Shown piece by piece: positions 15,330 to 64,000 of a DNA stretch of 64,000 nucleotides; position 1 is the stretch's first letter; every line of letters begins with the position of its first letter. The stretch lies in IMG/VR virus record IMGVR_UViG_3300024978_000001; one strand, given 5' to 3'. Source of the stretch: a virus. The position numbers and the translations under genes are program-made. The notes under the pieces were generated by a model that was given only the letters and a program-made list of their open reading frames with translations, was not told the origin of the DNA and did no database searches.

Positions 15330-15433
15330 TGAGAAGTTCCAACCAAGAAATTGGCCGGAACGTCCGACGACCCCCCTAAAGGAAAACTTTATGATCAACC
15401 GACGATGGTCGCGCCAATTCGGGGGGCCAAAAA

Positions 15434-17129: not shown

Positions 17130-18247
17130 CAGGCCGCTTCCTGGAGCTGCGGCCAGCTCACCCACTCCGGCTTGGCGGCTTGGGTTTGCTCGCGCCCCTC
17201 AAGCAGCACTTCCCAGCGCGCGGTGATGCCGTGCTTGGGGTGATCGAACCACAACATCTGCGACGGCCGCGAAAACGGCGCGCGCAACTGCAGCATGGCG
17301 TACTCGTCGAAGCCCTTGAGCGAATTGTTGACGATGGCGGTCGGCAGCCAGAGCGCCTGGTGCCAGTGCCCCATCAGAAGGATGTCGAACTCACGCTCGA
17401 CCTGGCTCTCGGAGCGGTGCGTCTTGATGGCGCCTCGCATAATGGGCCCGATGGCGCCGATGATCCCGTCGCCGCCCTTCGTCCCCAGGCTGTCACCGTG
17501 GGTGAGCATGTATCGCGTACCATACACCTTGAAGTGTGCGTCGGCGCTCTCGGGGATATAGAACTGGACGTTGCGGGATTTCTTGAAGTGCCGGGCCAGC
17601 GCGCAATACACGTTCCACTCATGCGAGGTGAAGACGCGGTCCTTCATCTGCATCTTCTTGGTCGAGCGGCCGTGGTTACCAACGACACACGGAACGAAGA
17701 CACGGCCGAATTGGGTCGCGACCGTTTCAAGCCCCGCGCCAATGAGGTCAATGAGGTCCTCAATCGCCTGTTGCGTAGTCCGATCGTTCGTCTTCGCGAG
17801 CTCCTCATGTATATCTCCGCCAAGCATATCCCCCCCGAGGCAGACGACAATACCAGGGTACTTATGCTTCGCGTTTCCCATATGGCTGAATGCAAGATCG
17901 CACGTCGTCTCGGTAAGACGGCGAACCCGTGTCTTGGCGATGTTGCGGTTGAACTCATTGACGCCCCCGACCTGGGATTTGAACACCCGCTCGCCATAGT
18001 GCCAGTCGCTCCACATCGTGATCGGGCAGCCGCGCTCAGCGCCGGCACGGTAGCGAACGATCCACTCGGGCGGGTCGGGATCGTAGGCTGCGATCTTGTA
18101 GATCTGCTCGCGGATCTCGCGGGCGGTGTCGTCGCTCTTGCGGAGCGCGGCGACTTCTTTGCGGAGCGCGAGCAGCTCGGCGTTGCGCTGGCGAATGATT
18201 TCGTTGGCGTCAGCCAGCTTATCGTCAAGTGTTTTCTTCGCGCTCAT
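17129..18247 (-). CDS. metallophosphoesterase with an N-terminal coiled coil
   Basis: SDWHYG (DxH), LGGDMLGGD (GD), VGNHG (GNH), LTHGD and MGHWH (GHxH). The N-terminus LADANEIIRQRNAELLALRKEVAALRK is coiled-coil-like. Confidence 0.7.
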   Translation of the reverse strand: MSAKKTLDDKLADANEIIRQRNAELLALRKEVAALRKSDDTAREIREQIYKIAAYDPDPPEWIVRYRAGAERGCPITMWSDWHYGERVFKSQVGGVNEFNRNIAKTRVRRLTETTCDLAFSHMGNAKHKYPGIVVCLGGDMLGGDIHEELAKTNDRTTQQAIEDLIDLIGAGLETVATQFGRVFVPCVVGNHGRSTKKMQMKDRVFTSHEWNVYCALARHFKKSRNVQFYIPESADAHFKVYGTRYMLTHGDSLGTKGGDGIIGAIGPIMRGAIKTHRSESQVEREFDILLMGHWHQALWLPTAIVNNSLKGFDEYAMLQLRAPFSRPSQMLWFDHPKHGITARWEVLLEGREQTQAAKPEWVSWPQLQEAA

Positions 18248-43285: not shown

Positions 43286-46200
43286 TTGAATGTGAGCGAC
43301 GCACGGAAGTTTTTGGGGGGCGTATTGGCCTGGCCGGAGGACGAGCAGTCCCCCGGCTGGGTCAACGTGCACGTCAACTCCAAGAACGATGACCCGAGCG
43401 ACACTAGCAATAAGAACAACGGCGGCAAGCCGTGGGTTGTCGGCTGGCCGTTTAAGGCCATTGACGATGCGCTGAGCCGCATCAACTGGTGCGAGAGCAC
43501 CGGCAAGTTTTACAACGCCTGGGTCTGCATGTCGCAACAGAGCGCGTGCACCAAGAGCCAGAAGACCGGCAAGCCCAAGGCGGTGCGTAGCGCGCAGACC
43601 GCCACCTATCTCAAGGCGATCTGGGTCGACGTCGACGTCAAGGCGGGAAGCCCGAAGCACTACGCAACCCAGGTCGACGCGTGGGCGGCGATCATGGCGT
43701 TCCACAAGAAGGTCGGTCTGCCGGACCCCTCCATGGTCGTGGACTCCGGGGGCGGTCTGCACATCTACTGGACCAGCAAAGATCATTTGTCGCTCGACGA
43801 GTGGAAGCCCTACGCTGTCGGCCTCAAGGCGCTGCTCATTCAAGAAGGTGTGAAGTGCGATGCCGGGCTGACCACCGACGCGGTGCGTATCCTGCGGGTC
43901 CCTGACACGCTGAACCACAAGTACACGCCAGCGCGCCCGGTGAAGCTGCTCCATGCCGGCGACGAGTACGACTTCCCTAAAGATCTAGCCGTGCTGCTTA
44001 CGGTTACCGCCGCGGTAACGCCGGCTGAGAAACCGGCGATCGTAATCGAGCCTGGGCACGAGCACTTGATCGGTGACCATCCTGACCCGGCTTTCGCCGC
44101 GCTCAAGCCCGACAACGCGCTGCAGGCGGGCTGCGGGCCATCAGGCCCGTTGCTGATCGACCCGACGCCGATCTTCGCAGAGAAAGGTTGCAAGTGGTTG
44201 CGCGAGGCGCTGCGCACCGGCGGGGCCGGCTTCGACCAGCCGCAGTGGAATTTGTCAGTGCTGTGCACCGTCTTCATGGAGAAGGGCAATGCGTTCGCGC
44301 ATGAAATCTCAAAGGGTCACGCGGAATACGGCTCGGGGGACGACACGCAGGCGCTCTACGATCGCAAGGTGGCGGACCGAGCAGACCGCGGAGTTGGGTA
44401 CCCAAGCTGCGCCACTATTGCTGGCGCTGGCAGCGCGCATTGCGCGACGTGCGACCATTTCAAGAAAGGGAAGTCACCGCTCAACATACGCGCTCTAAAG
44501 CCAGCGCCCACGAACGCGGTTACTGCGGCGGTAAACGGCAAGACGCTGCTGCTTCCCAACAGGTACTTCGTCGGCGACGACAACAAGATCTACTTCATGG
44601 ACCACCGCCTGGTGAAAGGCGAATACGTCGACGATCCGAAACAGCTCTTTCACAACATCATCGACGACGCGTATTCCACCAAGAACCCCGAGGCGCTGCA
44701 CCTGCATATCTCAACCGACAAGGGGAATTGGGACTGGATCACAATCGAGAAAGTGGACTTCGCCGGTCCCGGCTACGAGAAGAAGCTCGCTCAAGCGGGG
44801 TTGGACTATTGCGGCGAGAACAAGACAAAGTTGGAGGCGTTTTTTATGAGTTTCCTTGCACGTATGAAAGAAGCTGCTGAGCAGCAGGCCACCGTCAAAT
44901 TCGGCTGGTACCGGCCGAAGGGACCGATCGAGGGGTTCGCCTATGCCGGCCACATCTTCAAGACCGACGGATCGAGCACGCCGGCGAGCTACCCCGATGC
45001 AAACCTGCGCAGAAACTACCAGCCTCGTGGCAGCGTAGAGAACTGGCATACGACCGCTTCGTACATCTTCCGCCAGCGTCGGTCCGACTTCGATACCATC
45101 ATCGCAACCGCATTCGCCGCGCCGCTGATGGAGCTGACCGGACAGTCTGGTGTGATCGTCGCCTCGATGGGCGACCCGGGCTCGGGGAAGAGCTACGCGA
45201 TGGAGGTCGCCGCGGCGGTGTGGGGTAACCACAAACAGACCGTCGAGCGCGAGGGCACGACCGACAAGTCGTTGATCCACAAGCTGGGCTCGCTCGGGCA
45301 TCTGCCGGCGTATTGGGACGAAATCAGCGACCCTGTCCCGCAGGCGAGGTTTTTCGGCGTCGCGCAGCAAATCTCGGGGGGTGGCGAGGGCGGCAGGTTG
45401 ACCCAGAACATCAAGCAACAGAACCGCGGCGAGTGGAGCACCGTCCTCAACATCAACGGCAACAAGAGCTGGCGCGATTATGTGGTTTCAAAGCAGAAAG
45501 AGCACGGTGCCGGCTTGCGCCGCGTGCTCGAATACTGGGTGCCGAAGGATGTGCCGAACCCGCAAGGTCAGGTCCCGCCCAGCGAAGCCGATACCGCCCG
45601 CGCGCTGCTGCTTCACAATTATGGCGTCGTCGGCGAGCAGTACGCGCGGTACCTCGCGACGCACATGAGCCAAGTCTACCAGATGCTCAAGGCCAACACC
45701 GAATACTTCGAGGCCAAGCTGCAGCCCGACAAGCGAGAGAGCATGTGGCTGGCCGGGTGCGCAGTGCTGCTCACCGGCGCCGAGATCGCCACCAAGCTGG
45801 ACACGCCGGTGGAGTTCAACATCGGGCGGCTGGCCGACTTCTTGATCAACGTGTTCTTGAGCAACCGGCGCTACAGCAGCACCGCGCACACGAGCCCAAC
45901 GGATAATGCGGAAGACTACCTCGCGCAGTACCTCAAGGACCGCTCAGATGAAACGATCTGGACAATGGGCACATTCAAGGGCAGGGGGCGGCCGGGGCAG
46001 CAAGGGCAAGTAGAGTGGCGTCGCTTGCAGCCGAATGCCAGTGTGCGCAACGGCATTTCAGTGCGGTGGGATGGTCAGTCGATGACATTGAGTTTCTCGA
46101 AGACCAACTTCGTGGATTGGTGCGCCGGCAAGCCGGATAAGCGCGACCCCAACGTCATCGTTCGGGCGCTGGAAGGGATCTACAAGCTGCGCGGCGACCG

Positions 46201-46378
46201 CCGCATGCTCTGCGCCGGCACACCGTTCAAGATGCCGAGGGAGTGGGTGTACGTTATCGACGTCTCGCCGTACCCCACGCTGCGCGAGATCATGGACGCG
46301 TTCGTGGAGCAAACTCAGCTAAACGCGGATCTTGGCACTCCGACAGGGGTTGCGGGAGTGACGGGGACGGGGCCGTAG
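43286..46378 (+). CDS. bifunctional primase-polymerase / SF3-type helicase
   Basis: IWVDVDVK and VVDSGGGLHIYWTS (prim-pol signatures) in the N-terminal part. Walker A ASMGDPGSGKSYA in the central part. TTG/GTG start. Confidence 0.85.
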   Translation: MNVSDARKFLGGVLAWPEDEQSPGWVNVHVNSKNDDPSDTSNKNNGGKPWVVGWPFKAIDDALSRINWCESTGKFYNAWVCMSQQSACTKSQKTGKPKAVRSAQTATYLKAIWVDVDVKAGSPKHYATQVDAWAAIMAFHKKVGLPDPSMVVDSGGGLHIYWTSKDHLSLDEWKPYAVGLKALLIQEGVKCDAGLTTDAVRILRVPDTLNHKYTPARPVKLLHAGDEYDFPKDLAVLLTVTAAVTPAEKPAIVIEPGHEHLIGDHPDPAFAALKPDNALQAGCGPSGPLLIDPTPIFAEKGCKWLREALRTGGAGFDQPQWNLSVLCTVFMEKGNAFAHEISKGHAEYGSGDDTQALYDRKVADRADRGVGYPSCATIAGAGSAHCATCDHFKKGKSPLNIRALKPAPTNAVTAAVNGKTLLLPNRYFVGDDNKIYFMDHRLVKGEYVDDPKQLFHNIIDDAYSTKNPEALHLHISTDKGNWDWITIEKVDFAGPGYEKKLAQAGLDYCGENKTKLEAFFMSFLARMKEAAEQQATVKFGWYRPKGPIEGFAYAGHIFKTDGSSTPASYPDANLRRNYQPRGSVENWHTTASYIFRQRRSDFDTIIATAFAAPLMELTGQSGVIVASMGDPGSGKSYAMEVAAAVWGNHKQTVEREGTTDKSLIHKLGSLGHLPAYWDEISDPVPQARFFGVAQQISGGGEGGRLTQNIKQQNRGEWSTVLNINGNKSWRDYVVSKQKEHGAGLRRVLEYWVPKDVPNPQGQVPPSEADTARALLLHNYGVVGEQYARYLATHMSQVYQMLKANTEYFEAKLQPDKRESMWLAGCAVLLTGAEIATKLDTPVEFNIGRLADFLINVFLSNRRYSSTAHTSPTDNAEDYLAQYLKDRSDETIWTMGTFKGRGRPGQQGQVEWRRLQPNASVRNGISVRWDGQSMTLSFSKTNFVDWCAGKPDKRDPNVIVRALEGIYKLRGDRRMLCAGTPFKMPREWVYVIDVSPYPTLREIMDAFVEQTQLNADLGTPTGVAGVTGTGP
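44004..44018. repeat. TTACCG-N3-CGGTAA palindrome copy
   Basis: TTACCGCCGCGGTAA, inside the primase gene (V-T-A-A-V). Confidence 0.95.
44520..44534. repeat. palindrome copy with one mismatch
   Basis: TTACTGCGGCGGTAA, inside the primase gene (V-T-A-A-V). Confidence 0.7.
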
Positions 46379-47168: not shown

Positions 47169-50100
47169 CTATCGGGTCGCCTTGGTGTAAAGGCCCTCCA
47201 GTGGGCCGCGGCCGGACCTATTGCGCTGCCGCAGCGACTGCATGTTGTATCGCGACGTCTTCGCCGAGTAGGCGACCGACCGCCGGCTCGGGTTCTTGAT
47301 GTCGAGCATCTGATCGCGGAGGCCGCCAGCGACGCTGTGCCCGCTGTCCACGGTGTTGGCGTAGGTGTTGTACGGCGAGAATAGGTTGCGCGCAGCAAAC
47401 TCGCCGGCCTCGACCGCCGCCTGCCCGCCAGCACGCACGTTGCCTTTTGCCGCTTGGGCTACGAGCCCACGTTCAACGATCGGCTTGCCGCGATAGTCCC
47501 GATTGTCCTTTGCCTGCAGCACTGCGGTGAGCAGCGGCGAGGGCGTGACCAGGCTCTTGAGCGGCGCCGTGATGTCTTCCTTGCCCCGCAGCGCATCGAC
47601 GATATGCGCCGGCACCGAGATCGGGCCGCGGCGCTGCTGTGAGGCGCCCTTGTTGCCGGTGATGTATTTCGCCGCGGCGTCCAGCGCCGGGTAAATGACC
47701 AGCCCGAGCAGCCCCATTGCGAAGAGGTGCCCGAGCGCGTCGATCTTGGCCGCGCCGTTCCCCTTGACCAAGTCGCGGATGGTGTTGCCGTAGGAGTTCA
47801 TGATGCCCCAGTGGTAGCGGCCGAACACCGTGGCAGCGGGCTCAAGAAGGAGCTGAGCGACGACCCGGGCGCCTGCTCCGGTGCCGAGCACCGTGGACGG
47901 CACGCGGTAATTCGGGATGTGGCGCTCGGCGTGGATGATGGCCTGGTCGATGTCCATGCCTTCGTTCATGCGCTCCATGATGGCCTGGGTCAGGAACATA
48001 TCGTTGCCCGCCCACATGACGCGGCTGGATGCCTTGTAAACCGCCCGCACGAGGTCGCTGGGGCCGACGCCAAACTTCCGGGCGATTGGGTCCCACCTTG
48101 CCGGCTGCTTCCTCACGGCCTCGCCAAAGCCGCGGGCGAGGTTGTTCACGGCGTCCTGCGTGAGCACGCCGCTGTAGATCGTGCTGCCGCCGTTCTGCCG
48201 GATGGCTTTCTGGAAGTCGTCCTGCGTGACGACTGACTTGATCGCCTTGAGGCTGGTGTCGGCGAGCGACAGGTACGACTTCGGGACCGCCCAACGCTGG
48301 CCGCGGCCAACGAACCAGTGGCCACCGACGTTGGCAAGGTGCGCCACCGGCAGCCAGAAGATGGTCTTGGTGATCGCCTGGCTGATGCGGCGAATATACG
48401 CCACCGCGCCTTCGTTGATGCCGGGCTGCGCCATGTCATCGAGCGCGTAGGCGAGCTGCGGGTCGAAATGCCAGGCGCCATTCTTCCCGCTAAAATTGGC
48501 AAGTTTGGTCGGCAAGTAACCGTCGGGGATTTTGGCGCCCGGCGGTGCAGCGTACTTCAAGAACTCGGGGTCCTCTTTGAAGCCCTCGACGAATTTGTTG
48601 TAGCGCAGGATGCGACCCAGGTCGTAGTTCGCCATCGCCGCCGACAGCGCCGCGTTGTGGTAATACTTCGCCTTCTCGCCGGGGCCGAACAGCGCGTGGT
48701 CCTCGATCTCCGAGGTCAGCGCCTTCTTCATGGTGAAGGTCTTGCCCCCCACCGTGTACTGCTTGCCCGGCGCGTACTCGAAGTTCTCGTCCGTCACCTT
48801 GATCGGCTTGCGGTTGTGCCACACGGTGAAACCGTCGTCGTTCGCCGCGATCAGGAAGCGGTTACCCTTGGGGTCCTCCATCGCATAGAACTTCCGCTCC
48901 AGCATGGTGTTGACCGGGCGGACAGGCAGACCCTGACGGCCGGACACGATTGGGTCGTCGCGCTCGTCATCCACAAACATATTGCGGTCGGCCTTCTCGC
49001 CGGCCGGGATACGCATCGCGTGGTCGCCCTCGACCTTCTCGCCGAGCATTGCGACAAGGTGCTTTGGCAGCACGGTCTTGGCGGCTTCGTACAGCGCGTC
49101 GTTCTCGTTGAAGAGCGGCTCCAGGTATTTGTTGTAGAGCGCCTGCTCCTTCGGATCGAGGTTGCCGATGGTGCCGGCCTCGCGCGCATCGTAGAGCCGG
49201 CGCAGCGTCGCCGGGTTGTTCAACTCCTTCGGCAGCGACTTCGACCAGTGCTGCAGGTCGATCAGTTGCTGCTCATTGCCCTTGATGACCTTCACCGCCT
49301 CGGTGGACAGCGAGCGAGCGTATTGCTCCGCCGCGGATTTGGCGGGGCGGGCGATATGGCTCTCCAGCTTGGCGTGCTTGAAGTAGTCGCCGGCTTTGAC
49401 CTTGGCTTTGAACTTCTGGATGTCGGCGATGATCTTGTCGAGATTGAGCGCACCGGCTTCATCATCCATGAACAGCCGTCCCAAGCTCTTCGTCGTCGGG
49501 TCGCGCGCCTCTTTCGTCATCTTGACGATGTCGGCGCTGTCCAGGCGCGAGCCAGGGCGCGGCGCCGACGCCCCTTCAAGGAGCCGCTTGATGTATTCCG
49601 GATCGAGCGTCTTCGGGTCGATCTTGCGCACCGCGGAGGCTTTGGGGTTCTCCGGCGTGGAGCCTTCTCCGAGCGCCACCCCGGTCTTGCTGCTGCCGAC
49701 CATGCCGCCCTTGTTGGTGCTGCGCTTCTGCACCAGGGCTGCGGCGAGCGCGGCCCGGTCGCTCGGGTTGTTCGTGTCCAGGTGTTTGGTCGCCGCGCGC
49801 TCCTCCGCGATGCTTTCGGGCGTGGCGGGCTCTGGGCGCACCATGCTCTCGGCTTCTTCGTGCGGCACGTCGAACTCGCCTTTGGAGGCGTTCGCGCGGT
49901 CGATCGCGTCGATGATGTCGTCTTCAACGCTGTTATGCGTGGCGCGCTCGGCCTCGGCCCCCGCGATTGCCTCGTCGCCTGAACGCTTGGACAAACCAAT
50001 ATCGCTCTCGATGCGGCCGGTGGCGCGCGCCTCTGCGACACCTTCGCCGCCGCTGCGCAACAGCTTCTCCTGCGCGCGGAAGGCTTCGACCGCCTTGTCG

Positions 50101-52352
50101 CTGGGGTTCTTCGCGCGTAGCAGCTTGCGCGCCTCGCGCTCCATCACGGTGGGGGCGTGGTTATCGGCAGAAGGGCGATAGGGCTTGGCGGCGCCCTTCA
50201 TGGTGAAGTCCGCCGCCTTCGCGCGCTCAAGGAAGTCCTTGGCGCGTGCGACCGTGGCGGCTTTGTCTTCACCCTCCGCCGGGCTGGTCGCCTCGAAGGC
50301 GTCGTCGAGCGCCTTGATGTTCTTGCTCTTACCCGCGGCGCTGGCCTTGTCCTTGGCGCTGACGGTAAGACCTTCGACCTTCGGCGCCTCCGTGCGGATG
50401 CGGTCCGGGCGGGCGGGTACAGCGGCGGTGCCGTTGATGTATTTGCTGGCCTCACCCAGGCGCTTGGACGGCTCCATCGCCATGAAGTGCTCGATCGCCT
50501 CGTCAGGTATGCCGTTCGCCTTCATCTTGTTTACCGCGGCGGTAACGACCTTCGGCAACGGCTTCTCGCCTTCGGTCGGGCCGGCGCTCTCGGTCGCTGC
50601 CTCGTCGAATGGCTTGGTCTTCTTGCCGGGCTTGGCGAGCCAGTCTTTCAGCTCGTCGGCGGTGGCCTCCTTTATGGAGAGCACGCGGTCCGGGCCCGAG
50701 CCGTCGTTGAAGGCGCGGTGATAATGCTCCAGCGCGTCCACCGGGTCCTTGGCGTAGGCCATGACCTTGTGCTCGTCGAACTTGCCAGTTGCCGGGTCCT
50801 TCTGGTCGATGACGAAATGCCGGTCGCCGGTGCCCAGCACACCCACGTCGACGCGGTCGCCGTCGGCGCCTTTGGTGCCTAGGAACTCGCCGTAATCGTA
50901 GGGGAAGTTCTCCACGCGCCACTTCGGCGGCGTGCTCTTGGTGTCTTCGCGGACGCCACCTTTGGGGGTTTCGATGCTGACATCGCGGCCGAACAGCCGG
51001 CCCGGATGGCCCTTGGCGTAGTTGCCGGCTTCGGCCTGCGCGGGCGTCGGCTGCGCGACATGCTCGCGGGCGTCGGCTACCTTCTGTGCGTCGGGGTGAA
51101 CCGCCTCGGGCTGCGCAGGGGCGAGCCCAACGTCGGCATCAGACAGCGTCGGTGCCTCGGGGGAGGGCGGCGTTTCAGGGGCTGCTTCGGGCGCAGGCTT
51201 TTTGAGCCCGAGTGTCGGCTTTGCCGCGTTCGGGTTTGGCGGCGTAGGCGGCGCAGTGTCCGAAATTTGTACAGGATTTTCTGACACAGGCGCGGCTTCG
51301 GAAGGCGCCTGCTGCGGAAACCCCGTCTGGATCGGCGCCTCTTTCAACGATGCGTCGATGTCCACTTTCGGATTGCCGAGATCCTGGTTGCCGGCGTTCC
51401 GGAACGCGTTGAGCGCAGCAGCAACATCGGGCGAGTAATCGCCCTGCGTCAGCATGTCGGTCGCCTCGGACGCGGGCTTGGCACCCTTCGCGAGATTTCT
51501 TCCGGCGTCGCCGACCGTGGGCCGCGACTGCGGGTTGCCGATGGTATCGCCCTTGACGTCGGGTGCGGGTTTCTCGGATGCAACGCCGCGGGCGACGTTG
51601 GGCGGCGGGCTGCTCGCCGCCTCGTCCTGCGCCGCTTCGGCATCGGGGCTGGCGCTGGCGTTGGGGCGCCCGGGGATGCGCTTGGCGAGCTTCGCCCCCA
51701 TGCGCTGGCCTGGGCCCGTGAACTTTTCGCCGAGCCTGTTGGTACCGGGGAGCACCGCGCCGGCTGCGGCGGCAGTGAGGACCTTGCTCGGGCTCACCTT
51801 GCCTTCGGTCGCGTATTCTTGGCCTGCTTCAAGTCCGCCTTGCAGCGCCGCGCTGGCGCCGCGCACCAGTTTGCCCGCGCCCGCGGCGGGCCCCATACCC
51901 GCCATGTTGGTGGCGAGCTCAGTGGCGAACGTCTCATAGGGGTGGGCGTTGCGGTTGGCGGCAACCTGCTCGCTGTCGTCGATACCGATCGCATCAAGCC
52001 CGGCCTGCTGCGCCTTCGAAGTCGCGTAACTGGAAACAAGCGCTCCGGCTAAACCGCCGGCAATCGTACCGATCGGGCCGAATGCCGACCCGAGCTCGGC
52101 GCCGGTCGCAGCACCAAAATAACCAGCAGCCGCCGGGGCGGCCGTGTGCGCCACGGTGCGCGCGGTGCGCGCGGGGAAACCCTCGGGGGCAGGACGTGAC
52201 CCAACGCCTACCTCGTCGTCCGAGAGTAGCCCCACGTCTTCGTCGGACATGAAGGATTGTTCACCTTGCGGGGGCGCGGCGCCGTTACCGTCAATGCCGA
52301 CCTGGCTATCGTCGAGCAGACCGACATCCGAGTCGGAGAGCATATCTTCCAT
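47169..52352 (-). CDS. giant (1727 aa) virion-associated or internal protein with an inorganic-pyrophosphatase-like domain
   Basis: FPYDYGEFLGTKGADGDRVDVGVLG...KFDEHKVMAY aligns with the family I PPase core (Y-x-x-N-Y-G...D-G-D-P-x-D-V-x-V). Acidic repeated DVGLL motifs at the N-terminus. Lies last in the run of tail and internal-protein genes. Confidence 0.8.
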   Translation of the reverse strand: MEDMLSDSDVGLLDDSQVGIDGNGAAPPQGEQSFMSDEDVGLLSDDEVGVGSRPAPEGFPARTARTVAHTAAPAAAGYFGAATGAELGSAFGPIGTIAGGLAGALVSSYATSKAQQAGLDAIGIDDSEQVAANRNAHPYETFATELATNMAGMGPAAGAGKLVRGASAALQGGLEAGQEYATEGKVSPSKVLTAAAAGAVLPGTNRLGEKFTGPGQRMGAKLAKRIPGRPNASASPDAEAAQDEAASSPPPNVARGVASEKPAPDVKGDTIGNPQSRPTVGDAGRNLAKGAKPASEATDMLTQGDYSPDVAAALNAFRNAGNQDLGNPKVDIDASLKEAPIQTGFPQQAPSEAAPVSENPVQISDTAPPTPPNPNAAKPTLGLKKPAPEAAPETPPSPEAPTLSDADVGLAPAQPEAVHPDAQKVADAREHVAQPTPAQAEAGNYAKGHPGRLFGRDVSIETPKGGVREDTKSTPPKWRVENFPYDYGEFLGTKGADGDRVDVGVLGTGDRHFVIDQKDPATGKFDEHKVMAYAKDPVDALEHYHRAFNDGSGPDRVLSIKEATADELKDWLAKPGKKTKPFDEAATESAGPTEGEKPLPKVVTAAVNKMKANGIPDEAIEHFMAMEPSKRLGEASKYINGTAAVPARPDRIRTEAPKVEGLTVSAKDKASAAGKSKNIKALDDAFEATSPAEGEDKAATVARAKDFLERAKAADFTMKGAAKPYRPSADNHAPTVMEREARKLLRAKNPSDKAVEAFRAQEKLLRSGGEGVAEARATGRIESDIGLSKRSGDEAIAGAEAERATHNSVEDDIIDAIDRANASKGEFDVPHEEAESMVRPEPATPESIAEERAATKHLDTNNPSDRAALAAALVQKRSTNKGGMVGSSKTGVALGEGSTPENPKASAVRKIDPKTLDPEYIKRLLEGASAPRPGSRLDSADIVKMTKEARDPTTKSLGRLFMDDEAGALNLDKIIADIQKFKAKVKAGDYFKHAKLESHIARPAKSAAEQYARSLSTEAVKVIKGNEQQLIDLQHWSKSLPKELNNPATLRRLYDAREAGTIGNLDPKEQALYNKYLEPLFNENDALYEAAKTVLPKHLVAMLGEKVEGDHAMRIPAGEKADRNMFVDDERDDPIVSGRQGLPVRPVNTMLERKFYAMEDPKGNRFLIAANDDGFTVWHNRKPIKVTDENFEYAPGKQYTVGGKTFTMKKALTSEIEDHALFGPGEKAKYYHNAALSAAMANYDLGRILRYNKFVEGFKEDPEFLKYAAPPGAKIPDGYLPTKLANFSGKNGAWHFDPQLAYALDDMAQPGINEGAVAYIRRISQAITKTIFWLPVAHLANVGGHWFVGRGQRWAVPKSYLSLADTSLKAIKSVVTQDDFQKAIRQNGGSTIYSGVLTQDAVNNLARGFGEAVRKQPARWDPIARKFGVGPSDLVRAVYKASSRVMWAGNDMFLTQAIMERMNEGMDIDQAIIHAERHIPNYRVPSTVLGTGAGARVVAQLLLEPAATVFGRYHWGIMNSYGNTIRDLVKGNGAAKIDALGHLFAMGLLGLVIYPALDAAAKYITGNKGASQQRRGPISVPAHIVDALRGKEDITAPLKSLVTPSPLLTAVLQAKDNRDYRGKPIVERGLVAQAAKGNVRAGGQAAVEAGEFAARNLFSPYNTYANTVDSGHSVAGGLRDQMLDIKNPSRRSVAYSAKTSRYNMQSLRQRNRSGRGPLEGLYTKATR
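50531..50545. repeat. TTACCG-N3-CGGTAA palindrome copy
   Basis: TTACCGCGGCGGTAA, inside the giant gene (V-T-A-A-V). Confidence 0.95.
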
Positions 52353-52357
52353 CGCGG

Positions 52358-53917
52358 CTACTCCGCCCGCTGCCAGCCATTACCCATCCATTTGAACGGG
52401 CCTTTCGGCGTCTGATAGACCTGACCAACTACACGTTCGTTGGCCGGCGGGACCTGATGTCCTCCCTGTGCCGGTGCGTTCTGCGTCGGTTGCGCGCCCG
52501 TGCCGCCGGGCTGCGGGATTTGGCCCCCCGGGCCAGCTATCCCTGTGGTGAACTTGTCTACCTGCCCGACGATCGCGTCCTGCTGCTCGCTCGGCAGATT
52601 GGCGAAGTTGGGGTCGAGCAATTTGGCGCGCAGCATGCGCCCCATCTCGCGCATGCGACCGTCCCGGGTCTGCTGCATCATCTTGGTCAGGGCGAGGTTC
52701 GTTTGCCCCTGCAGGCGCTTGGTCTCCGCCTCCGACCGGATTTGCGCGGACTTAACTCGGGCGCCGGCACTGGTCTCTGCGCTCTTAACCCTCGCCCCGG
52801 CCGCTTCCCTTGCGACGCCCAGGCGCGCGCGCTCCTGTCCCTCGGCGATCTGGCGCTTGTTATCCAGCTCGTCGCCGCGGGTGGTTTCGCTGGCCAGATA
52901 TTGGTTGCGCGCAGCGTTCTGCGACACGGACGGAAAGAGCGACATCGCGCGCCCTCTCACGTCGGCATCATCGACCCCGCGCGTCGATGACGAAACTCCG
53001 CGCCCCACCAGCGTGAAGCCATCCGGGTTCTTGCCGTTGAGGCGGTTATTCCAATCGGTGTAGTCGTTGTCGCCGCCCGACAGATCCACAAAGTCGCGCT
53101 TCATGTTCTGCTTGGTGATCTCGTCCGGCTCAAACTTGGTCGTGTCGCCGACAGGCGCCGACAGATCCACCAGCGAGCTGCTCGGCTTGCCTTCCTTCGT
53201 GGTGCCCACGATCTTCTGCAACGTGCCGCTGATGCCGCCGTTCGACATGACGTGGTCCCACTGGCCGGCGCCGCCGATGTCGAGGTATTTGTCGAACTGC
53301 TCGGGCGTGAGGGTGTAATTCTCCGTCTGGTTCGAGCCCGGGGCTTTTACCGTCGCGGTAACGCCGTTGCCCCCCGGGTCGGCAGTAAACGTCGCTTGCG
53401 AGCCGTCGAGGATGTTCTGCGAAGCCTGGCTCGCCGCGTTCGCCGCGGCCTGGAGGTCGCCGGCCTTGCCGTCGACGCCGTTCAGCGCCGCCTTCGCGAA
53501 CGCCTGTTTGCGGTCGTATGCGGAGCGGTTGTACTGGATCATCGCCCAGCCGGCCGCGGGGCCACCCATCTCGGTGGCCTGATGCACGGCAAGGACGTTG
53601 GCCTCGTCGTCGCTGATGTTCGGATGCTGCGCCTTGACGTTCTGCGCGGCGCGCTCGGCCTCGGCCGGGTCGGCGCTGTCCGCCCCCATCAGATAATGCA
53701 GGATGCGCTTCGCGCCGCCGGCGACAGCACTGGCCCCGCTACGCGCCGCGTTGATCGGCAGCATGCCATTATCTTGCGCATACCACGGACGGTCGCCGCC
53801 TAGCGTCGCAGGCTGCTCTTGCTCTGGCTCCGGAATAGCGGGCTGCCCACTCTCCGGCGCGGCGCTCTGTTCCTGCTCCTGGTCGTCGGGGATCGCGCCC
53901 TCAAAATCGTCGGCCAT
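52358..53917 (-). CDS. hypothetical internal virion or tail-associated protein (519 aa)
   Basis: ORF track. TAATG coupling to the upstream gene. Acidic N-terminus MADDFEGAIPDDQEQEQ. Confidence 0.7.
   Translation of the reverse strand: MADDFEGAIPDDQEQEQSAAPESGQPAIPEPEQEQPATLGGDRPWYAQDNGMLPINAARSGASAVAGGAKRILHYLMGADSADPAEAERAAQNVKAQHPNISDDEANVLAVHQATEMGGPAAGWAMIQYNRSAYDRKQAFAKAALNGVDGKAGDLQAAANAASQASQNILDGSQATFTADPGGNGVTATVKAPGSNQTENYTLTPEQFDKYLDIGGAGQWDHVMSNGGISGTLQKIVGTTKEGKPSSSLVDLSAPVGDTTKFEPDEITKQNMKRDFVDLSGGDNDYTDWNNRLNGKNPDGFTLVGRGVSSSTRGVDDADVRGRAMSLFPSVSQNAARNQYLASETTRGDELDNKRQIAEGQERARLGVAREAAGARVKSAETSAGARVKSAQIRSEAETKRLQGQTNLALTKMMQQTRDGRMREMGRMLRAKLLDPNFANLPSEQQDAIVGQVDKFTTGIAGPGGQIPQPGGTGAQPTQNAPAQGGHQVPPANERVVGQVYQTPKGPFKWMGNGWQRAE
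53347..53361. repeat. TTACCG-N3-CGGTAA palindrome copy
   Basis: TTACCGTCGCGGTAA, inside 52358..53917 (V-T-A-T-V). Confidence 0.95.
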
Positions 53918-54366: not shown

Positions 54367-55542
54367 CTATACCTCCGGTATTGCTTGCTGCGTGGGAGCA
54401 GCTTGCTGCATGGGAGCGGCTTGCAGGCCCACTGGGGATTGCGCCTGACTTTGGTTGCGCACCGCGCGCGACTTGGCGATCAGGTTGTGGAAGAACTCCA
54501 TGCCCTTCCAGCTCGCCACGTCCTGGGGGATGACGAACTCGCCGGCGTTCAAATGCGCGGGGACGTCGTCGGTCGCGGCGCCGCCGGATGGTGAGGTTTC
54601 GGGGTCCACATAGCCGCCTTCCGCAAAATAGCCGGAGTAATCGCCCATGCTCCCGTTGGCGTAGTCGTTGACGTGGTCCATGCCCCAGGCCGTACCGCCG
54701 CCGGAGTTCAAGTCGCCGCCACCACCGCCACCGCCACCGCCGCGGTAACCGCCACCTCCGCCACCGCCCCCGCCGTCGCTTTCCGACGAGTTCATGGACG
54801 AGCCGTAGCTTTGGGTTTGGTTCGAGACCGGCGACAGTTTCAAACTCATTGCGGTCTGCAGGTATTTGTTCGGCAACTGCTGCAAGTTCGCGCCGGTGTT
54901 CGCGTTCGCCAGGATCGCATTGCTGGCGCCGGCGTTCGCCTGGGTCGCAGTGTTCTCTGCGTTCGAGATCGCGGCCGGCAGGAGCGAGCCCGCCTGTACG
55001 GCCTCGGCGCGCAACTGCTGCCCGGTGTTGATGTCGGCCATGCGCTGCTGGTTCATGGCCCCGGCAACGTTCGCTGCGTTCTGTACGGCAGCGGCTTTGT
55101 CCAACGCCGCGTAGCGGCCGGACGACGGGTCGATCCCATAGCCGAGCAAATTCTGTTCGCTGTTCTTGATTGCCTGGTCGCCCGCCTGCGCCTGCGTCGC
55201 GCCGGCCATAGCCATGTCAGCCTTCATTCTCGATGGAGATGCATAACTGTTCGCATCGGCGATCAGTTGTGCGTTCTCCGGAGCAAAAAGGTTGTTGTAT
55301 TGGTCGGCCATACCGCCGGCGAAGCCGGTCATCTTCTGGCTCGTGGCGAGGAAATTGTTGACTGCGTCGTTCGTGATCGCAGACGTCTGCGAGTACGTGC
55401 TGCTCGCCCAGTCGTGCATCTGGGAGGCGAGCGACTGCGCGTACTGCGCCACCTGGTCGAGAATGTCGTTTTCCGGAGTGCGGACGACGGTAGGCGTCGA
55501 CGACGAACTGCTCGAACTAAAACCGGAACTGGATGAAGCCAT
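54367..55542 (-). CDS. hypothetical virion-module protein with a poly-Gly tract (391 aa)
   Basis: ORF track. Ser-rich N-terminus, Q/A/N-rich helical core, GGGGGGGGGYRGGGGGGGGG. Confidence 0.7.
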   Translation of the reverse strand: MASSSSGFSSSSSSSTPTVVRTPENDILDQVAQYAQSLASQMHDWASSTYSQTSAITNDAVNNFLATSQKMTGFAGGMADQYNNLFAPENAQLIADANSYASPSRMKADMAMAGATQAQAGDQAIKNSEQNLLGYGIDPSSGRYAALDKAAAVQNAANVAGAMNQQRMADINTGQQLRAEAVQAGSLLPAAISNAENTATQANAGASNAILANANTGANLQQLPNKYLQTAMSLKLSPVSNQTQSYGSSMNSSESDGGGGGGGGGYRGGGGGGGGGDLNSGGGTAWGMDHVNDYANGSMGDYSGYFAEGGYVDPETSPSGGAATDDVPAHLNAGEFVIPQDVASWKGMEFFHNLIAKSRAVRNQSQAQSPVGLQAAPMQQAAPTQQAIPEV

Positions 55543-56231: not shown

Positions 56232-56608
56232 CTCTTCCGCCGCCAATTCCACTTCTGGCCCGTGGCGCGGTGCTGCATCGTCAGGCTATTGATCCGCTCC
56301 ACATCGACATACTGCGATTTATCGGTTGGGTTTGTGACCCGTACCTTCTCCACAACGCGGTTGACCTCGACCCAATCTGATCTTTTGTCTTCTTGCGTGA
56401 TGAAGTTATTCGTGACGCCGGTATCGGTGTTGTTCTGTTTGGTCTTATCCAATAGCTGCATGAGCGCGAGCCGCATCGCATTAACTAACGCGATGGCGGA
56501 AGTCAGATCGCTGGCCGGCCCTGGTATGCCGGGTGTGTTGAACGGCTGCGGGGTGCCGGGCGTAGATGGGGGCGGGATGTGGCAGACAGGACCGACAACA
56601 TTAGACAT
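56228..56608 (-). CDS. hypothetical tail-module protein (126 aa)
   Basis: ORF track. 8-nt overlap with the 910-aa gene. Confidence 0.55.
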   Translation of the reverse strand: MSNVVGPVCHIPPPSTPGTPQPFNTPGIPGPASDLTSAIALVNAMRLALMQLLDKTKQNNTDTGVTNNFITQEDKRSDWVEVNRVVEKVRVTNPTDKSQYVDVERINSLTMQHRATGQKWNWRRKR

Positions 56609-59333
56609 TAGCCATCCCCTTCACTGTCGTGCCGACTTCAAAACTTGAGATGTGCAGCCGCGTGATTATGCGGAACTGCCAGGTCTCGTGCTTGAAGCCG
56701 CTGGTGATGCGCAGCAGCTCCTTCGTCTTGCGCAGCTCGCGCGCCGTAACCAGTTGGCCCCCGGAGTAGACCAGGATGAACCCCCAACGGTCGTTGGGTA
56801 GCCCATTGATCCAGAACGGATCAGTGATCGGGTTCTCCGCACGCGTTGCGTTCAACGCTGGCGTGTTCGGCGGTACCTCAAATGTGAAGCGCATAACCTC
56901 GAAGTTCTTTCGAGTGCGTTGTTTGTATTTCTTCGACGTCCAGTCGACGACGGACAGCGCCGGCGCTGCGTCAGTGAAATCCAGATAGTAGAGCCCGTTT
57001 CGCGCGATGAAGGTGGCGACAGCACTCCACGGGTCAACCGCAACCATCGCAAGCGGGGCTGACAACGGGTTGCTCAAAAGCTGAAAGCCGAGTCGATGCC
57101 GGCCGGGTTGCGGCCAAATGGTGAAACTCTCGGCATCGGATGCGTTCATTTCAACGGTGAAGCCGCGGACGCCTTGGCCGCCTTCGTTCCCGTTGGGCCC
57201 GACTTGGTAAGCGAAGTAGCACGAGTTCAAGAGTACAGCGACGAGTGAGCTCTGTGGCGTGAGCTGCTGCCACTTCTCCCGCGTGATCCACGTCTCGGTG
57301 ACGTTCTTGACCTGGCCGTACTGCGTGACCAAGATCAGGCCATTCTTCGAGGCGTAATAGACGCCATCATTGTTGCCGACGATGCTCTTGCGCGAATGGC
57401 ATGGCTCGCTGTTCTGGATTTTCATTGCGGTCATCGCGCCCGGGAAAACGCCAGTCGTGACGTATGGCGCGCCGGACGTCGCGGCGACCAAGGAGTTGCC
57501 GGTGACGCCAAGACCGACGATCGGATATTCCGTCGTCTGCACGTAGGACGGGGGCCACGCGTGCGGGCGGTACGGCTCGCAGAACCAGATCTCGTTGGCG
57601 CGCCAGCCGGCGAGAACGCCATTCGGCATCACAACAAGCCCCTGCAGATCCTCCGGCGGCGGCGTCCACAACTGGCTCTGCAACTGATTATTGTTCACAA
57701 CCACGTCGTCGCTGATGACGTCGAGATATTCCGCAGTCGTAACCGGCAAGTCGTCGCCGTCTGTACCGGTGACCTGGTAGTAAGTCGTGCCGCCGCTCAG
57801 CGCCGTGATCGTGCGATAAAGCCGCAGCTTGGTGATGTTGCGGGTGACGCCGATCTGATCCGCCGGCGGTTGGAATAGACTGATCGTCCATGTGGCGTTA
57901 GACCAGCCAGTCGCCGTCGTAGGCGGTGAGGGGGCGCTCTCCTCACCGTACTCAGTGATGTAGGTGTAAACGTATGTCCGTGCTTCGAGCACGCTCGATG
58001 TCGTTAGATCGCCCCACATCTGCAGGCTGGCGACACCAACGCTGAGGTTGGTGAGAACGTTCGGCGGTCCGTTCGCGTAAGTATTGTTTGATGTCACGCC
58101 CGCGGTACCGCTGTCGGCGGTGTGAATATCGAACGCCGTATCGCATGCGAAGCCGATCCAATACTGCACGTTCATCAAGAGCCCGGTCGGGTTCACGAAC
58201 TCGCTCGTGATCGCTTGGCCGGAGGTTGTCGTAAACTGAACTGCCGCCCCGACATTCAGTAGATCGCGCGGCGTCCCGTTGTCGTCGCTGTAAAGCACAG
58301 CGACCAGATTGCCGGTCTGGCCAGACACAGCAGCCATAACGGAGATGTCATTGAGCATCATGGCGCCGTCGGGCGTGACCGGCATGAGGTATATCTTATT
58401 CGCCCCCGGGGCTACCGTCGTTGGCGCGTTCGACGTCGGTACACCGAGCTGTGCGGAGCTGCCGCCCCCGCTGACTTCGACCCCGGGGGTGCACCCGGGG
58501 GGCGGCACGCCGAGCAGCCAGGCCGGCTCCCCCGCCTGAATGCGGGTACGCGTGTTGTACGTCGGCGCGGCCGAGGCACTGGCGATATAGAACCGCGCGT
58601 ATTGGTCGTCGACCAGCGGCGACCGCACCACGTCGGTGTTCGGCTCGACGAACTCCATGAAGGTGCTCGCCCCGGTGATGTCGGTCGCGATCTCGACGTT
58701 CTCGCCGCCCAGCAGGGTGGTCGTAGCTGCGCCGTTGAAGCCCCAGCTCAGACGCCCGCCGGCGTTCGCGCCCACCGCCGTGTTGTTGTAAGCGGCGCCG
58801 ACATCCGGCGCGTACACCGTGATTGCCGGCGGCGTGGTGTCGATCTGCAGGATATTCTTGGTCTGCGGCGACGTCTGGTCGATCGCCGGGTTGGCGGTCG
58901 TGCCGACGCCGTACAGGGTGCCCTTGTTGGCGCCGGTGCCGTTGTCGTAAGTCAGCGCGGCGAAAAGATTGGTGGCCGTAGCGGCAGCGGAGCCACCAAT
59001 CTTTACCTGATAAGCTGCGGTTACCGTGGCGGTAAACGTATAGGTCTCCTCGCCGACGGTAACCGTATCGCCTTCATTCGGGCTCGCGTCGAAACGCAGA
59101 AAGGCGTTCGCCGCCGCGCTGCTTTCGTCCGGCACCCGGTAGATGTAGCCGGGGTTGCTGAGCGTAGTGTTGCGCAGCAACTTCGGGATACGCCAGCCTT
59201 CGAGGCCGCCCGAGAATAGATAGCCGTTAGTGGAAGTCGCAGCCTGCCCGTCGGGCAGCAAGTAGGGGTCCCAGGCGGGCAGGGCCCCCCCGAATTTGTC
59301 TACCCGAAAGCTATCGTCTCTCTGCTCGGCCAT
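56601..59333 (-). CDS. large tail protein (910 aa), function by size and position
   Basis: The largest structural ORF after the giant gene, beta-rich. Lies upstream of the internal-protein run, as tail tubular or nozzle proteins do in podoviruses. Confidence 0.7.
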   Translation of the reverse strand: MAEQRDDSFRVDKFGGALPAWDPYLLPDGQAATSTNGYLFSGGLEGWRIPKLLRNTTLSNPGYIYRVPDESSAAANAFLRFDASPNEGDTVTVGEETYTFTATVTAAYQVKIGGSAAATATNLFAALTYDNGTGANKGTLYGVGTTANPAIDQTSPQTKNILQIDTTPPAITVYAPDVGAAYNNTAVGANAGGRLSWGFNGAATTTLLGGENVEIATDITGASTFMEFVEPNTDVVRSPLVDDQYARFYIASASAAPTYNTRTRIQAGEPAWLLGVPPPGCTPGVEVSGGGSSAQLGVPTSNAPTTVAPGANKIYLMPVTPDGAMMLNDISVMAAVSGQTGNLVAVLYSDDNGTPRDLLNVGAAVQFTTTSGQAITSEFVNPTGLLMNVQYWIGFACDTAFDIHTADSGTAGVTSNNTYANGPPNVLTNLSVGVASLQMWGDLTTSSVLEARTYVYTYITEYGEESAPSPPTTATGWSNATWTISLFQPPADQIGVTRNITKLRLYRTITALSGGTTYYQVTGTDGDDLPVTTAEYLDVISDDVVVNNNQLQSQLWTPPPEDLQGLVVMPNGVLAGWRANEIWFCEPYRPHAWPPSYVQTTEYPIVGLGVTGNSLVAATSGAPYVTTGVFPGAMTAMKIQNSEPCHSRKSIVGNNDGVYYASKNGLILVTQYGQVKNVTETWITREKWQQLTPQSSLVAVLLNSCYFAYQVGPNGNEGGQGVRGFTVEMNASDAESFTIWPQPGRHRLGFQLLSNPLSAPLAMVAVDPWSAVATFIARNGLYYLDFTDAAPALSVVDWTSKKYKQRTRKNFEVMRFTFEVPPNTPALNATRAENPITDPFWINGLPNDRWGFILVYSGGQLVTARELRKTKELLRITSGFKHETWQFRIITRLHISSFEVGTTVKGMANV
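59021..59035. repeat. TTACCG-N3-CGGTAA palindrome copy
   Basis: TTACCGTGGCGGTAA, inside 56601..59333 (T-A-T-V-T). Confidence 0.95.
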
Positions 59334-60566: not shown

Positions 60567-60802
60567 TTAGGCCCTCGTTGCCAGTCTTCACGCCGGCGCC
60601 GCAAGAGCTCGGCGACGAACCCGTTCACGAGGATGTAGCACTGCAGCAGACGGTGGTCGCTGATGAATGCGGTCATGTCGACCTGTTGCGCGGCGGTGTA
60701 GAACGCGAAGAACACAAACTGCATGCGCGCCCACAGGATCGTTTCGCTCGAACGAAACGACGCGTGAAACCTCGCCCACCAACCTCGAACTGTCTGTTTC
60801 AT
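60563..60802 (-). CDS. small membrane protein (79 aa), lysis-cassette component
   Basis: ATG at 60802 forms an ATGA overlap with the endolysin stop. Hydrophobic ILWARMQFVFFAFYTAAQQV. Confidence 0.45.
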   Translation of the reverse strand: MKQTVRGWWARFHASFRSSETILWARMQFVFFAFYTAAQQVDMTAFISDHRLLQCYILVNGFVAELLRRRREDWQRGPK

Positions 60803-61593
60803 ATGTGCACCACTTTGTTCGCCGCAGCGGCGGCGCGCTCGTGGAGCAGCTCGTAAACCACTCCAGCAGCAACGACAGCGCCGCACGCGGCGGCGATGCC
60901 CCACCACGGAGCGCCGGCGGCGTAGCCCGCAGTGCCGACAGCGACAACGCCGCCCACTGCCGGGGCGCTGGCGGACTTCGCTGCGTGCGTAGCTTTCGGC
61001 AGTCCGGGAATAACATTGGGCGGCGGCGGCACAGCAGTCGGCTTCCGCGTACCTCCGGCGGCAAGCTGTTTGCTGTAACTACGAAGATCTTCCACACGCT
61101 TTTGCCAGCCGCGGCCGAACTCCTTCCACGCCTCGCCATTCCGGATCGACCGCATGAACTTGAGCCGCTCGGCGCAGGTTTCGTCGATCAGCCACCAGGG
61201 GTCGACCTTCCCGACCGCCTTGACGAGCGCTGCGTCCATCTTGTTACCGCCTGGCGTGTTAAGCAGGCGGCGCCACACCAGGACGGGGCGCGCAACCCCG
61301 GAGTTGACCCCGTAATCGAGCCCGACCACATCGACCCCAGACGGCAAATCGTCGAAGTAGAGCGGCAACGCGTACTTGAGACGGTAGATCTGCTCGGCTT
61401 CGTCCAGCGTCATAGCCCGCACGATCGGCGCCCACGCCGCCATCGACGTCATCTTCTCATGGCGAAACTCGGCGAGGTCGTAGCAAGTGATGCCGTACTT
61501 CGTCGGTCCGCCGGTGTCCTTCTTGTTCCACCCATAACCGCCTTCGTAGTCGTGGATCAGGCGGTCAATGAAAGCCGTGTAGTTGGCGTACAT
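60799..61593 (-). CDS. endolysin, glycoside hydrolase family 108-like with a peptidoglycan-binding region and a hydrophobic C-terminal segment
   Basis: YEGGYGWNKKDTGGPTKYGIT matches the GH108 E-G-G-x...D-x-G-G-x-T-x-x-G-I signature. The C-terminus is VGGVVAVGTAGYAAGAPWWGIAAACGAVVAAGVVY. Confidence 0.8.
   Translation of the reverse strand: MYANYTAFIDRLIHDYEGGYGWNKKDTGGPTKYGITCYDLAEFRHEKMTSMAAWAPIVRAMTLDEAEQIYRLKYALPLYFDDLPSGVDVVGLDYGVNSGVARPVLVWRRLLNTPGGNKMDAALVKAVGKVDPWWLIDETCAERLKFMRSIRNGEAWKEFGRGWQKRVEDLRSYSKQLAAGGTRKPTAVPPPPNVIPGLPKATHAAKSASAPAVGGVVAVGTAGYAAGAPWWGIAAACGAVVAAGVVYELLHERAAAAANKVVHI

Positions 61594-63090: not shown

Positions 63091-64000
<910 letters not shown>

Follow-up and report, generated by a model that had tools for sequence, protein, structure and literature searches.

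What would a phage gain from a pyrophosphatase (PPase) domain placed inside one of its giant late proteins, and where would such a domain act? This question is raised by the IMG/VR virus record IMGVR_UViG_3300024978_000001, of which one strand of 64,000 nucleotides (the window) was analysed. An annotation made from the sequence letters (the original prediction) had described a 1727-amino-acid (aa) giant late protein with a PPase-like domain, and had given no strand. The open reading frame (ORF) list and the translation confirmed an ATG-to-stop ORF of this length on the minus strand (Table 1), and the Pfam family PF18823 (InPase) matched its product with an E-value of 9.3e-28. The strings quoted in that prediction were all recovered in the translation, including SDSDVGLLDDSQVG (aa 6-19), SDEDVGLLSDDEVG (aa 36-49), SDADVGLAPAQ (aa 404-414), FPYDYGEFLGTKGADGDRVDVGVLG (aa 483-507), and KFDEHKVMAY (aa 524-533). 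By its conserved residues and predicted fold, the InPase domain is genuine and appears catalytically competent. On balance, we lean towards the reading that the protein is a late phage polyvalent protein, which would be packaged and ejected and would deliver its InPase domain to hydrolyse inorganic pyrophosphate (PPi).

The InPase domain and its known relatives

The PF18823 match went well beyond a chance resemblance: it scored 97.2 bits, where the cut-off is 26.8, and covered profile positions 2-134 of 135. The canonical Pfam PPase family gave no match to the 1727-aa protein. A profile alignment by hhalign placed aa 483-505 on residues 51-75 of the Escherichia coli PPase (Ppa) with an E-value of 1e-5, in which F483-P-Y-D-Y487-G...D497-G-D499-R-V-D502 was paired with Y51-P-C-N-Y55-G...D65-G-D67-P-V-D70. 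The numbering of the Ppa sequence in this alignment agrees with that published for the active site. In the 22-member family alignment, E461, R468, W478, Y487, D497, D502, D516, Q517, D526, E527, and K529 were invariant, and D499 was nearly so. The same positions, with the exception of D516, did not vary among 26 InPase domains of differing architectures. By inspection, E461 would correspond to E20 of the E. coli enzyme, R468 to K29, D516 to D97, D526/E527 to D102, K529 to K104, and Y544 to Y141.

The structural comparison agreed with this assignment. An AlphaFold2 model of aa 425-985 had a predicted local distance difference test score (pLDDT) above 90 across the InPase domain, and a Foldseek search of the PDB with the InPase model returned family I pyrophosphatases at all of ranks 1-32, with probabilities of 0.63-1.00 and target-normalised template modelling (TM) scores of 0.27-0.45. 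Thus the predicted domain recovered the PPase fold, as originally proposed, in the form of a family-I-type oligonucleotide/oligosaccharide-binding (OB) fold, and its metal-binding aspartates were retained and invariant (D499 nearly so). Like E. coli Ppa and Mycobacterium tuberculosis Rv3628, which were among the top structural matches, the domain has the OB core with aligned Y-x-x-x-Y-G and D-x-D-x-x-D motifs. Its identity to the cellular enzymes is about 20%; unlike them, the domain lacks the hairpin between strands 1 and 2 and is built into a 1727-aa protein, where they are free hexamers. The stretch from the strand-1 Glu to DYG was about 9 residues shorter in the alignment than that of the M. 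tuberculosis PPase, which is consistent with membership in a hairpin-less polyvalent clade. At the N-edge of the domain lies the segment AQAEAGNYAKG (51012-51041, aa 438-447); its A442 and N444 were invariant in 26 of 26 InPase sequences, and the AlphaFold2 pLDDT of the segment was only 36-51.

The original prediction had called a PPase fold delivered with the genome an unusual cargo, and this part did not hold. InPase owes its name and its description as a domain of phage polyvalent proteins, which are predicted to enter the host together with the phage DNA, to Iyer, Burroughs, Anand, de Souza and Aravind (2017, PMC5512222), who reported that the polyvalent-clade InPase is without the beta-hairpin between strands 1 and 2. 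They proposed that the domain clears PPi and thereby favours early replication or transcription, or that it hydrolyses a nucleotide-like substrate, the alternative substrate being raised from gene contexts with NUDIX, GNAT, and TmrB (PMC5512222). A tblastn search detected InPase in 389 of 50,697 phage records, and 289 of these 389 were Pseudomonas phages; the one member with a deposited structure, Pa193 gp19, carries the domain at the C-terminus of the portal protein. Annotations of other carriers included DarB-like antirestriction, minor or internal head, tail, virion structural, methylase, and helicase proteins. The best PDB sequence match was the portal gp19 of phage Pa193 (9b41, residues 641-763), with an E-value of 2e-12 for the single sequence and 8e-40 with a profile. 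Residues 529-765 of Pa193 gp19 are without density in the electron cryo-microscopy (cryo-EM) map, so that a phage InPase has yet to be seen in an experimental structure. Searching full texts for 'InPase' together with 'phage' returned the 2017 paper alone, and no biochemical study of a phage InPase turned up. In the literature on virion proteomics of pyrophosphatase-bearing phage proteins, nothing relevant was found.

Phage InPase is therefore a described and widespread class, and the giant protein is a further member of it. As in the polyvalent proteins of Iyer et al., which carry InPase in phage-type and not in conjugative-element proteins, a hairpin-less OB fold with an acidic site is part of a very large late protein beside virion genes. 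Unlike them, the window protein combines just one recognisable enzymatic domain with a C-terminal module that escapes the current models of large polyvalent protein-associated domains (LPD) and PLxRFG. No second enzymatic domain and no zincin-like metallopeptidase were detected in it by Pfam, PHROG, and NCBIfam; the latter domain is frequent in polyvalent proteins (about 36%), and is not obligatory (Iyer et al. 2017, PMC5512222).

The conserved scaffold and the InPase slot

Outside the InPase domain, searches of Pfam, PHROGs, NCBIfam, and the PDB with the whole protein and with its N-terminal, middle, and C-terminal pieces yielded nothing except trivial glycine-zipper matches. The absence of RNA polymerase, lysozyme, and peptidase domains from the Pfam, PHROGs, and NCBIfam results agreed with what had been noticed at first. 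However, the surroundings of the domain, which had been called otherwise unrecognisable, turned out to include a module that belongs to a large conserved family and is predicted to share its fold with the C-terminal module of polyvalent proteins. This C-terminal module of about 740 aa had no Pfam, PHROG, or NCBIfam match of its own. An exhaustive HMMER search with its profile matched 1155 representative clusters at an E-value of 1e-3 or below, 917 of them at 1e-30 or below. In the best 150 matches the module was located at or near the C-terminus, and the proteins were 760-1950 aa long apart from partial sequences.

In the AlphaFold2 prediction the module was a single, mainly helical domain that contains one beta-rich insert (pLDDT 74.5, predicted TM score 0.76). 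Foldseek found no credible match for this model in the PDB, where the best hit had an E-value of 0.07 and a TM score below 0.2. The search of BFVD, a database of viral structure predictions, gave 41 matches at an E-value of 1e-3 or below (TM scores of 0.37-0.72), nearly all of which were C-terminal chunks of large phage proteins. They were named 'large polyvalent protein associated domain-containing', LPD38, or by cargo, the cargo names including Zeta toxin, ART-PolyVal, RelA/SpoT, methylase, helicase, and LT_GEWL. The top match, A0A6J5LI71_2, had an E-value of 2e-26, a TM score of 0.72, and full-length coverage. The sole strongly hydrophobic helix of the protein lies within a long model helix, in a stretch that aligns weakly with the PLxRFG domain; here hhalign paired AERxIPNYR...FGRYHxG and the hydrophobic helix with D..fNY...QFKKYGxGM and a hydrophobic helix on the PLxRFG side. 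Six PLxRFG proteins gave collinear sub-threshold hmmsearch matches at the same stretch, and one of 30 relatives of the C-terminal module gave a sub-threshold match to LPD38 (E 0.0027). Together with the BFVD results, these weak matches fit a superfamily shared with PLxRFG and LPD38, short of proof. The C-terminal module probably acts like the polyvalent C-terminal module and is probably distantly related to it, as far as the predicted models indicate. Kinship with ejection proteins of the T7 gp14/15/16 or P22 type, or with any solved fold, was rejected because the whole protein gave no sequence match to such a protein in the PDB and the C-terminal module gave no credible Foldseek match there.

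The N-terminal part of the protein shows conservation too. Equivalents of the two tandem acidic-hydrophobic motifs are present in relatives in 2-4 copies at the same place, for instance as VPAFDDIPSFDDLPD or FDPDAYL. The motifs are kept in kind and not in sequence, and many of the relatives P0007-P0021 carry VPAFDDIPSFDDLPD twice or FDPDAYL three times. Our guess is that these acidic repeats could be a capsid-targeting or docking signal. The relatives' FDDIPxF form resembles the C-terminal tip of the single-stranded DNA-binding protein (SSB), DFDDDIPF; mimicry of that tip was considered and dropped, for the motifs are internal and the window's copies have diverged. In the Gly/Ala-rich segment that follows, G88, G92, G95, G99, and G103 were nearly invariant and the hydropathy was positive over aa 81-120. 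This glycine-zipper-like segment, which could insert into a membrane, accounts for the trivial matches mentioned above, which were weak and fell on glycine-zipper regions of PdsO and of a phage tail-associated lysin PHROG. The next conserved region, N2, was matched by its local profile in most long relatives. The helical middle region had no Pfam, PHROG, or PDB match, and its motifs in the family consensus included RIExDIGxSxRSGDEAIAxAEA and FDVPHEEAE.

About 19 full-length relatives came from a word-indexed search; all of them were metagenomic, their lengths were 1615-1858 aa, and their identities were 34-94%. PF18823 was essentially their sole Pfam match, and conservation spanned the full length of the family alignment. 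Three longer proteins (P0020-22, 1930-2029 aa) shared the N-terminus and InPase and had a highly divergent C-terminus, which is still homologous to the C-terminal module (hhalign probability 100%, 16% identity). Local profiles were run against the 148 relatives that matched the C-terminal module best, and 18 of these had InPase. In 74, some of them partial sequences, the profiles used recognised nothing before the C-terminal module. The arrangement N1-N2-C was found in 15 proteins and N1-N2-M1-M2-C without InPase in 12; further architectures were the full N1-N2-InPase-M-C and, in three proteins, InPase at the extreme N-terminus. In InPase-less relatives, the slot between N2 and M1 was occupied by other conserved modules of about 120 aa (P0066, P0074, P0082, P0079, P0081, P0085, P0087, and P0060). 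No Pfam families corresponded to these modules, and a PDB search with one of them was empty. The P0060 module matched an internal segment of PHROG 938 (2185 positions, another giant phage protein) with an E-value of 2e-20. A slot module of the form DPNLPGVTIDRTKQVPYL...VHEIxER was likewise not in Pfam, PDB, or PHROGs.

Homologues were also found in bacterial assemblies. Those of Bradyrhizobium altum, B. mercantei, and B. oropedii (L003, L004, and L005) showed 51-53% identity over full C-terminal matches. In these proteins N2 was retained, N1/N2 was joined directly to the C-terminal module, and aa ~330-935 were missing. One homologue is located on a scaffold of 1.28 Mb; this points to an integrated prophage and, for the phage group, to hosts among the alphaproteobacteria. 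A Phenylobacterium metagenome-assembled genome (L006) is a further bacterial assembly with a scaffold homologue that is devoid of the InPase and middle block.

The cultured Rhizobium phage RHph_TM29 offers another combination. Its giant protein EVB31_083 (2328 aa, annotated 'hypothetical', with equivalents in TM27A, TM27B, and TM3_14A) resembles the window protein in genomic position, in an InPase domain of 41% identity, and in N-terminal and middle parts that are long and either disordered or helical. However, it ends in a PLxRFG (NF032893) C-terminus, and outside InPase it has no significant BLAST similarity to the window protein. The separate combinations across the relatives and TM29 indicated that scaffold and cargo recombine independently, which is a hallmark of polyvalent proteins. 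From these architectures, InPase looks like a swappable cargo in an exchangeable slot.

Genome setting and feature coordinates

The sequence at 1-507 of the window returns unchanged at 63494-64000, and the window is thus a complete circular or terminally redundant genome of 63,493 bp. A collagen-like (Gly-X-Y) fibre gene crosses the end junction. The giant gene is the final gene of a minus-strand late/structural operon, whose transcriptional order is terminase, portal, capsid, fibres, lysin-like gene, internal/structural proteins, and giant gene. This order agrees with the earlier placement of the gene as the last large one of the tail and internal-protein run. The giant-gene ATG lies 5 nt after the TAG stop (52358-52360) of the 519-aa upstream gene, and the reading of this junction is that the giant gene is translationally coupled to it. 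The GC content at third codon positions was 0.84, similar to that of neighbouring genes. Downstream of the giant gene, terminator-like or promoter-like sites were not found. Table 1 lists the features of the protein and the late genes.

The gene order of the upstream late run was identical on the contig of the relative P0013. In RHph_TM29, homologues of the 910-aa and 391-aa proteins are encoded just upstream of the InPase giant; the homologue of the 910-aa protein is EVB31_088, and a 963-aa lysozyme/TPR protein of TM29 considered for this role was rejected. The resemblance to ejected or polyvalent proteins of podoviruses, noticed at first from size and position, thus agrees with the late-operon context, the synteny, and the predicted C-terminal fold.

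The convergent plus strand carries a DUF927 primase-helicase (43286-46378), an SNF2 helicase, a family-A DNA polymerase, and exonucleases. No ORF of sufficient size for a single-subunit RNA polymerase was present in the phage, and no tRNAs were found in the window. In TM29, EVB31_075 (L001:15556-18465, 'putative integrase protein') corresponds by size and position to the DUF927 primase-helicase, and its GenBank 'integrase' label may be a misannotation. On a related contig (L002:23267-23623), a gene for a MazG/dUTPase_2-like nucleoside triphosphate (NTP) pyrophosphohydrolase, a PPi-generating enzyme, adjoins the SNF2 helicase gene. In the structural module of the window, a 661-aa protein (7928-9913, minus strand) matched a PHROG beta-1,4-glycosyltransferase with an E-value of 2e-31, which was unexpected between portal and capsid genes.

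A megablast search with 40-60 kb against the 50,697 phage records gave no nucleotide-level relative. By portal, the nearest cultured phages were the Rhizobium phages RHph_TM27A, TM27B, TM29, and TM3_14A at 57% identity, and more distant relatives were HMO-2011, CRP, and Pelagibacter phages, which we take to be podophages. The window phage is probably a podovirus.

Table 1. Coordinates of the giant gene, its parts, and late genes of the window
Feature	Position	Strand	Basis or remark
Whole gene, 1727-aa giant late protein	47169..52352	-	stop codon 47169-47171; ORF list, translation
GGAG, Shine-Dalgarno-like	52361..52364	-	8 nt 5' of the ATG of the 1727-aa gene; read from sequence
Two tandem acidic-hydrophobic motifs SDxDVGLLxDxxVG, aa 6-19 and 36-49	52206..52337	-	translation
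Gly/Ala-rich glycine-zipper-like hydrophobic segment, aa 73-112	52017..52136	-	family alignment, hydropathy
Conserved region N2, aa 131-330	51363..51962	-	family alignment; scaffold common to InPase-less relatives
Pro/Ala/Glu-rich linker, aa 331-431	51060..51362	-	column conservation 0.26-0.39, low occupancy
Third DVGL motif, aa 404-414	51111-51143	-	inside linker
InPase domain, aa 438-572	50637..51041	-	PF18823; AlphaFold2; Foldseek
D497-G-D499-R-V-D502	50847..50864	-	equivalent to E. coli metal-binding D65-x-D67-x-x-D70 (hhalign)
Helical middle region, aa 583-985	49398..50606	-	AlphaFold2, helical, mixed confidence
C-terminal module of about 740 aa, aa 986-1727	47172..49397	-	AlphaFold2, profile search, BFVD
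Sole strongly hydrophobic helix, aa 1535-1561	47670..47750	-	Kyte-Doolittle 19-mer maximum 1.81
Upstream late run: 910, 126, 213, 391, 148, 519 aa	52358..59333	-	PHROG matches
391-aa protein	54367-55542	-	PHROG 'virion structural protein'
910-aa protein	56601-59333	-	PHROG 'internal virion protein'
Lysin-like gene	60799-61593	-	
Two separate collagen-like tail-fibre genes	9955-10581; 63091-63939	-	many PHROG tail-fibre matches
Major capsid protein	2602-3624	-	
Portal	13017-15398	-	
Large terminase	15666-17165	-	

Proposed role of the giant protein

The conserved scaffold of the protein consists of the acidic repeats, glycine zipper, and N2 at the N-terminal side and the C-terminal module of about 740 aa, and a cargo block, namely the linker-flanked InPase followed by the helical middle region, lies between the two ends. 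In most relatives of the scaffold this block is missing or has other modules in its stead. In the reading that we favour, the protein would be loaded into the capsid and would leave it through the short tail when the phage infects. The glycine zipper and C-terminal module would serve packaging and/or envelope crossing, and a role of the C-terminal module in encapsidation and/or as an envelope conduit is our guess. The InPase domain would thus reach the host cytoplasm. In the most speculative step, it would hydrolyse PPi and pull nucleotidyl transfer forward, which would benefit the transcription of early genes by the host RNA polymerase and then replication by the family-A polymerase and primase-helicase.

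Packaging and ejection are suggested by the position after internal-virion genes, the beads-on-a-string build with disordered linkers, the glycine zipper, and the precedent of phi24B gp47. The latter is a 2811-aa protein with LPD5, LPD1, LPD38, and a MuF-C peptidase; it is abundant in podophage virions according to proteomics, is invisible in the map, and has been proposed as an ejection protein. It resembles the window protein as a giant late protein of a short-tailed phage, and the fold predicted for the window protein's C-terminal module is similar to that of the LPD38/PLxRFG class to which gp47 belongs. It differs in that no sequence match exists, the cargo is another, a metallopeptidase is present, and InPase is absent. 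PPi is favoured as the substrate because the PPi-type site appears complete and because the phage encodes its own replication enzymes and has no ORF for a single-subunit RNA polymerase.

Several observations weigh against this reading. The protein has one recognisable enzymatic domain only and lacks the zincin processing peptidase. Its C-terminal 743 aa were unmatched by tblastn at an E-value of 1 or below in the phage records, and no cultured phage with the module is known from them. The NF032893 (tail-700/PLxRFG) and LPD38 (PF18857) hidden Markov models (HMMs) missed the window protein at an E-value of 1 or below, while NF032893 matched the RHph_TM29 giant (4e-95) and P0037 (1e-229). By regular expression, the PLxRFG motif was absent from the window protein and present in P0036, P0037, P0048, and P0049. 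Membership in LPD38 or PLxRFG as now defined is thus ruled out by the HMMs and the motif search. The hhalign comparison of the C-terminal alignment with the PLxRFG alignment reached a probability of only 4-5% (E 0.009). Since the HMMs fail, the polyvalent link rests on predicted-structure similarity. The proposed equivalents of D97, D102, and K104 were assigned by eye from conservation. Bacteria already hold an abundant and essential PPase, and the gain from a few delivered molecules is doubtful. Lastly, the Pbunavirus InPase resides on a non-ejected portal, so the role of the clade need not involve injection.

A rival reading keeps the delivered protein and changes the substrate. InPase might hydrolyse another phosphoanhydride, such as (p)ppGpp, NTPs, short polyphosphate, or a nucleotide-derived signal of alarm or immunity, and act as a counter-defence or host-takeover effector, which we consider fairly unlikely while giving it real weight. 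Cells already contain PPase, the alternative raised by Iyer et al. came from NUDIX, GNAT, and TmrB contexts, and InPase shares its slot and scaffold with other putative effector cargo. The absent hairpin and the invariant AQxEAGNYxKG extension would imply a differing substrate pocket. However, the full PPi- and metal-binding set of family I PPases appears conserved, the window protein has no defence-related partner domain, and biochemical support for any member is absent from the literature, in which the 2017 paper alone was found. A bolder version of the same idea, improbable in our view, holds that the C-terminal module and the glycine zipper form an undescribed delivery scaffold of uncultivated phages with a fixed slot, in which InPase would be one of at least four cassettes and would destroy a phosphoanhydride signal at entry as a form of counter-defence, in place of a housekeeping role in removing PPi.

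The Pbunavirus portal also bears on where the protein resides. The Pa193/E217 gp19 (PDB 9b41) is a virion protein with InPase of the same clade, placed as a C-terminal portal appendage within the capsid that the cryo-EM map does not show, whereas the window's InPase is internal to a non-portal giant. The giant protein might accordingly stay in the particle, as part of a core, in the capsid interior, or associated with the portal, with InPase acting in assembly or DNA packaging or serving a structural or ion-binding purpose. Labels such as minor head, internal head, and virion structural protein, given to InPase carriers in PHROG and GenBank, would suit this proposal. We nevertheless rate it as quite improbable: packaging turns ATP into ADP, so that no PPi source is known in capsids, and the strict invariance of catalytic-type residues points to an enzyme. 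The glycine zipper suits an ejection protein of a short-tailed phage, as does the location behind the internal-virion genes, and phi24B gp47 has been interpreted as ejected. A protein that is not packaged at all, acting late in the cytoplasm or membrane of the producing cell, for instance in the timing of lysis, in envelope remodelling, or in nucleotide economy, appears highly improbable. In its favour, the packaging of the protein is itself a prediction, and the last operon gene before a convergent replication block is a frequent site of accessory genes. Against this, three related genomes keep the gene at its position among the virion genes, the predicted fold is related to the polyvalent C-terminal module, and ejected proteins typically have such a size and such a beads-on-a-string build. 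Ejection followed by PPi hydrolysis thus remains the reading towards which we lean.

Virion-associated pyrophosphatase domains were predicted in 2017 and are carried by hundreds of phages, including therapeutic Pseudomonas PB1-like phages, and the present locus extends this concept little. It does offer a clean natural comparison, since one scaffold is found in forms that carry InPase, carry different modules, or are free of any cargo block. No fold has been solved for the C-terminal module, a large unannotated family that has been overlooked by current domain libraries. Together with the apparently exchangeable InPase slot and a cultured relative for testing, this family makes up the modest new points of the analysis. 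Since the cultured phage RHph_TM29 carries InPase at the same genomic position, the questions of injection and of substrate become experimentally approachable.

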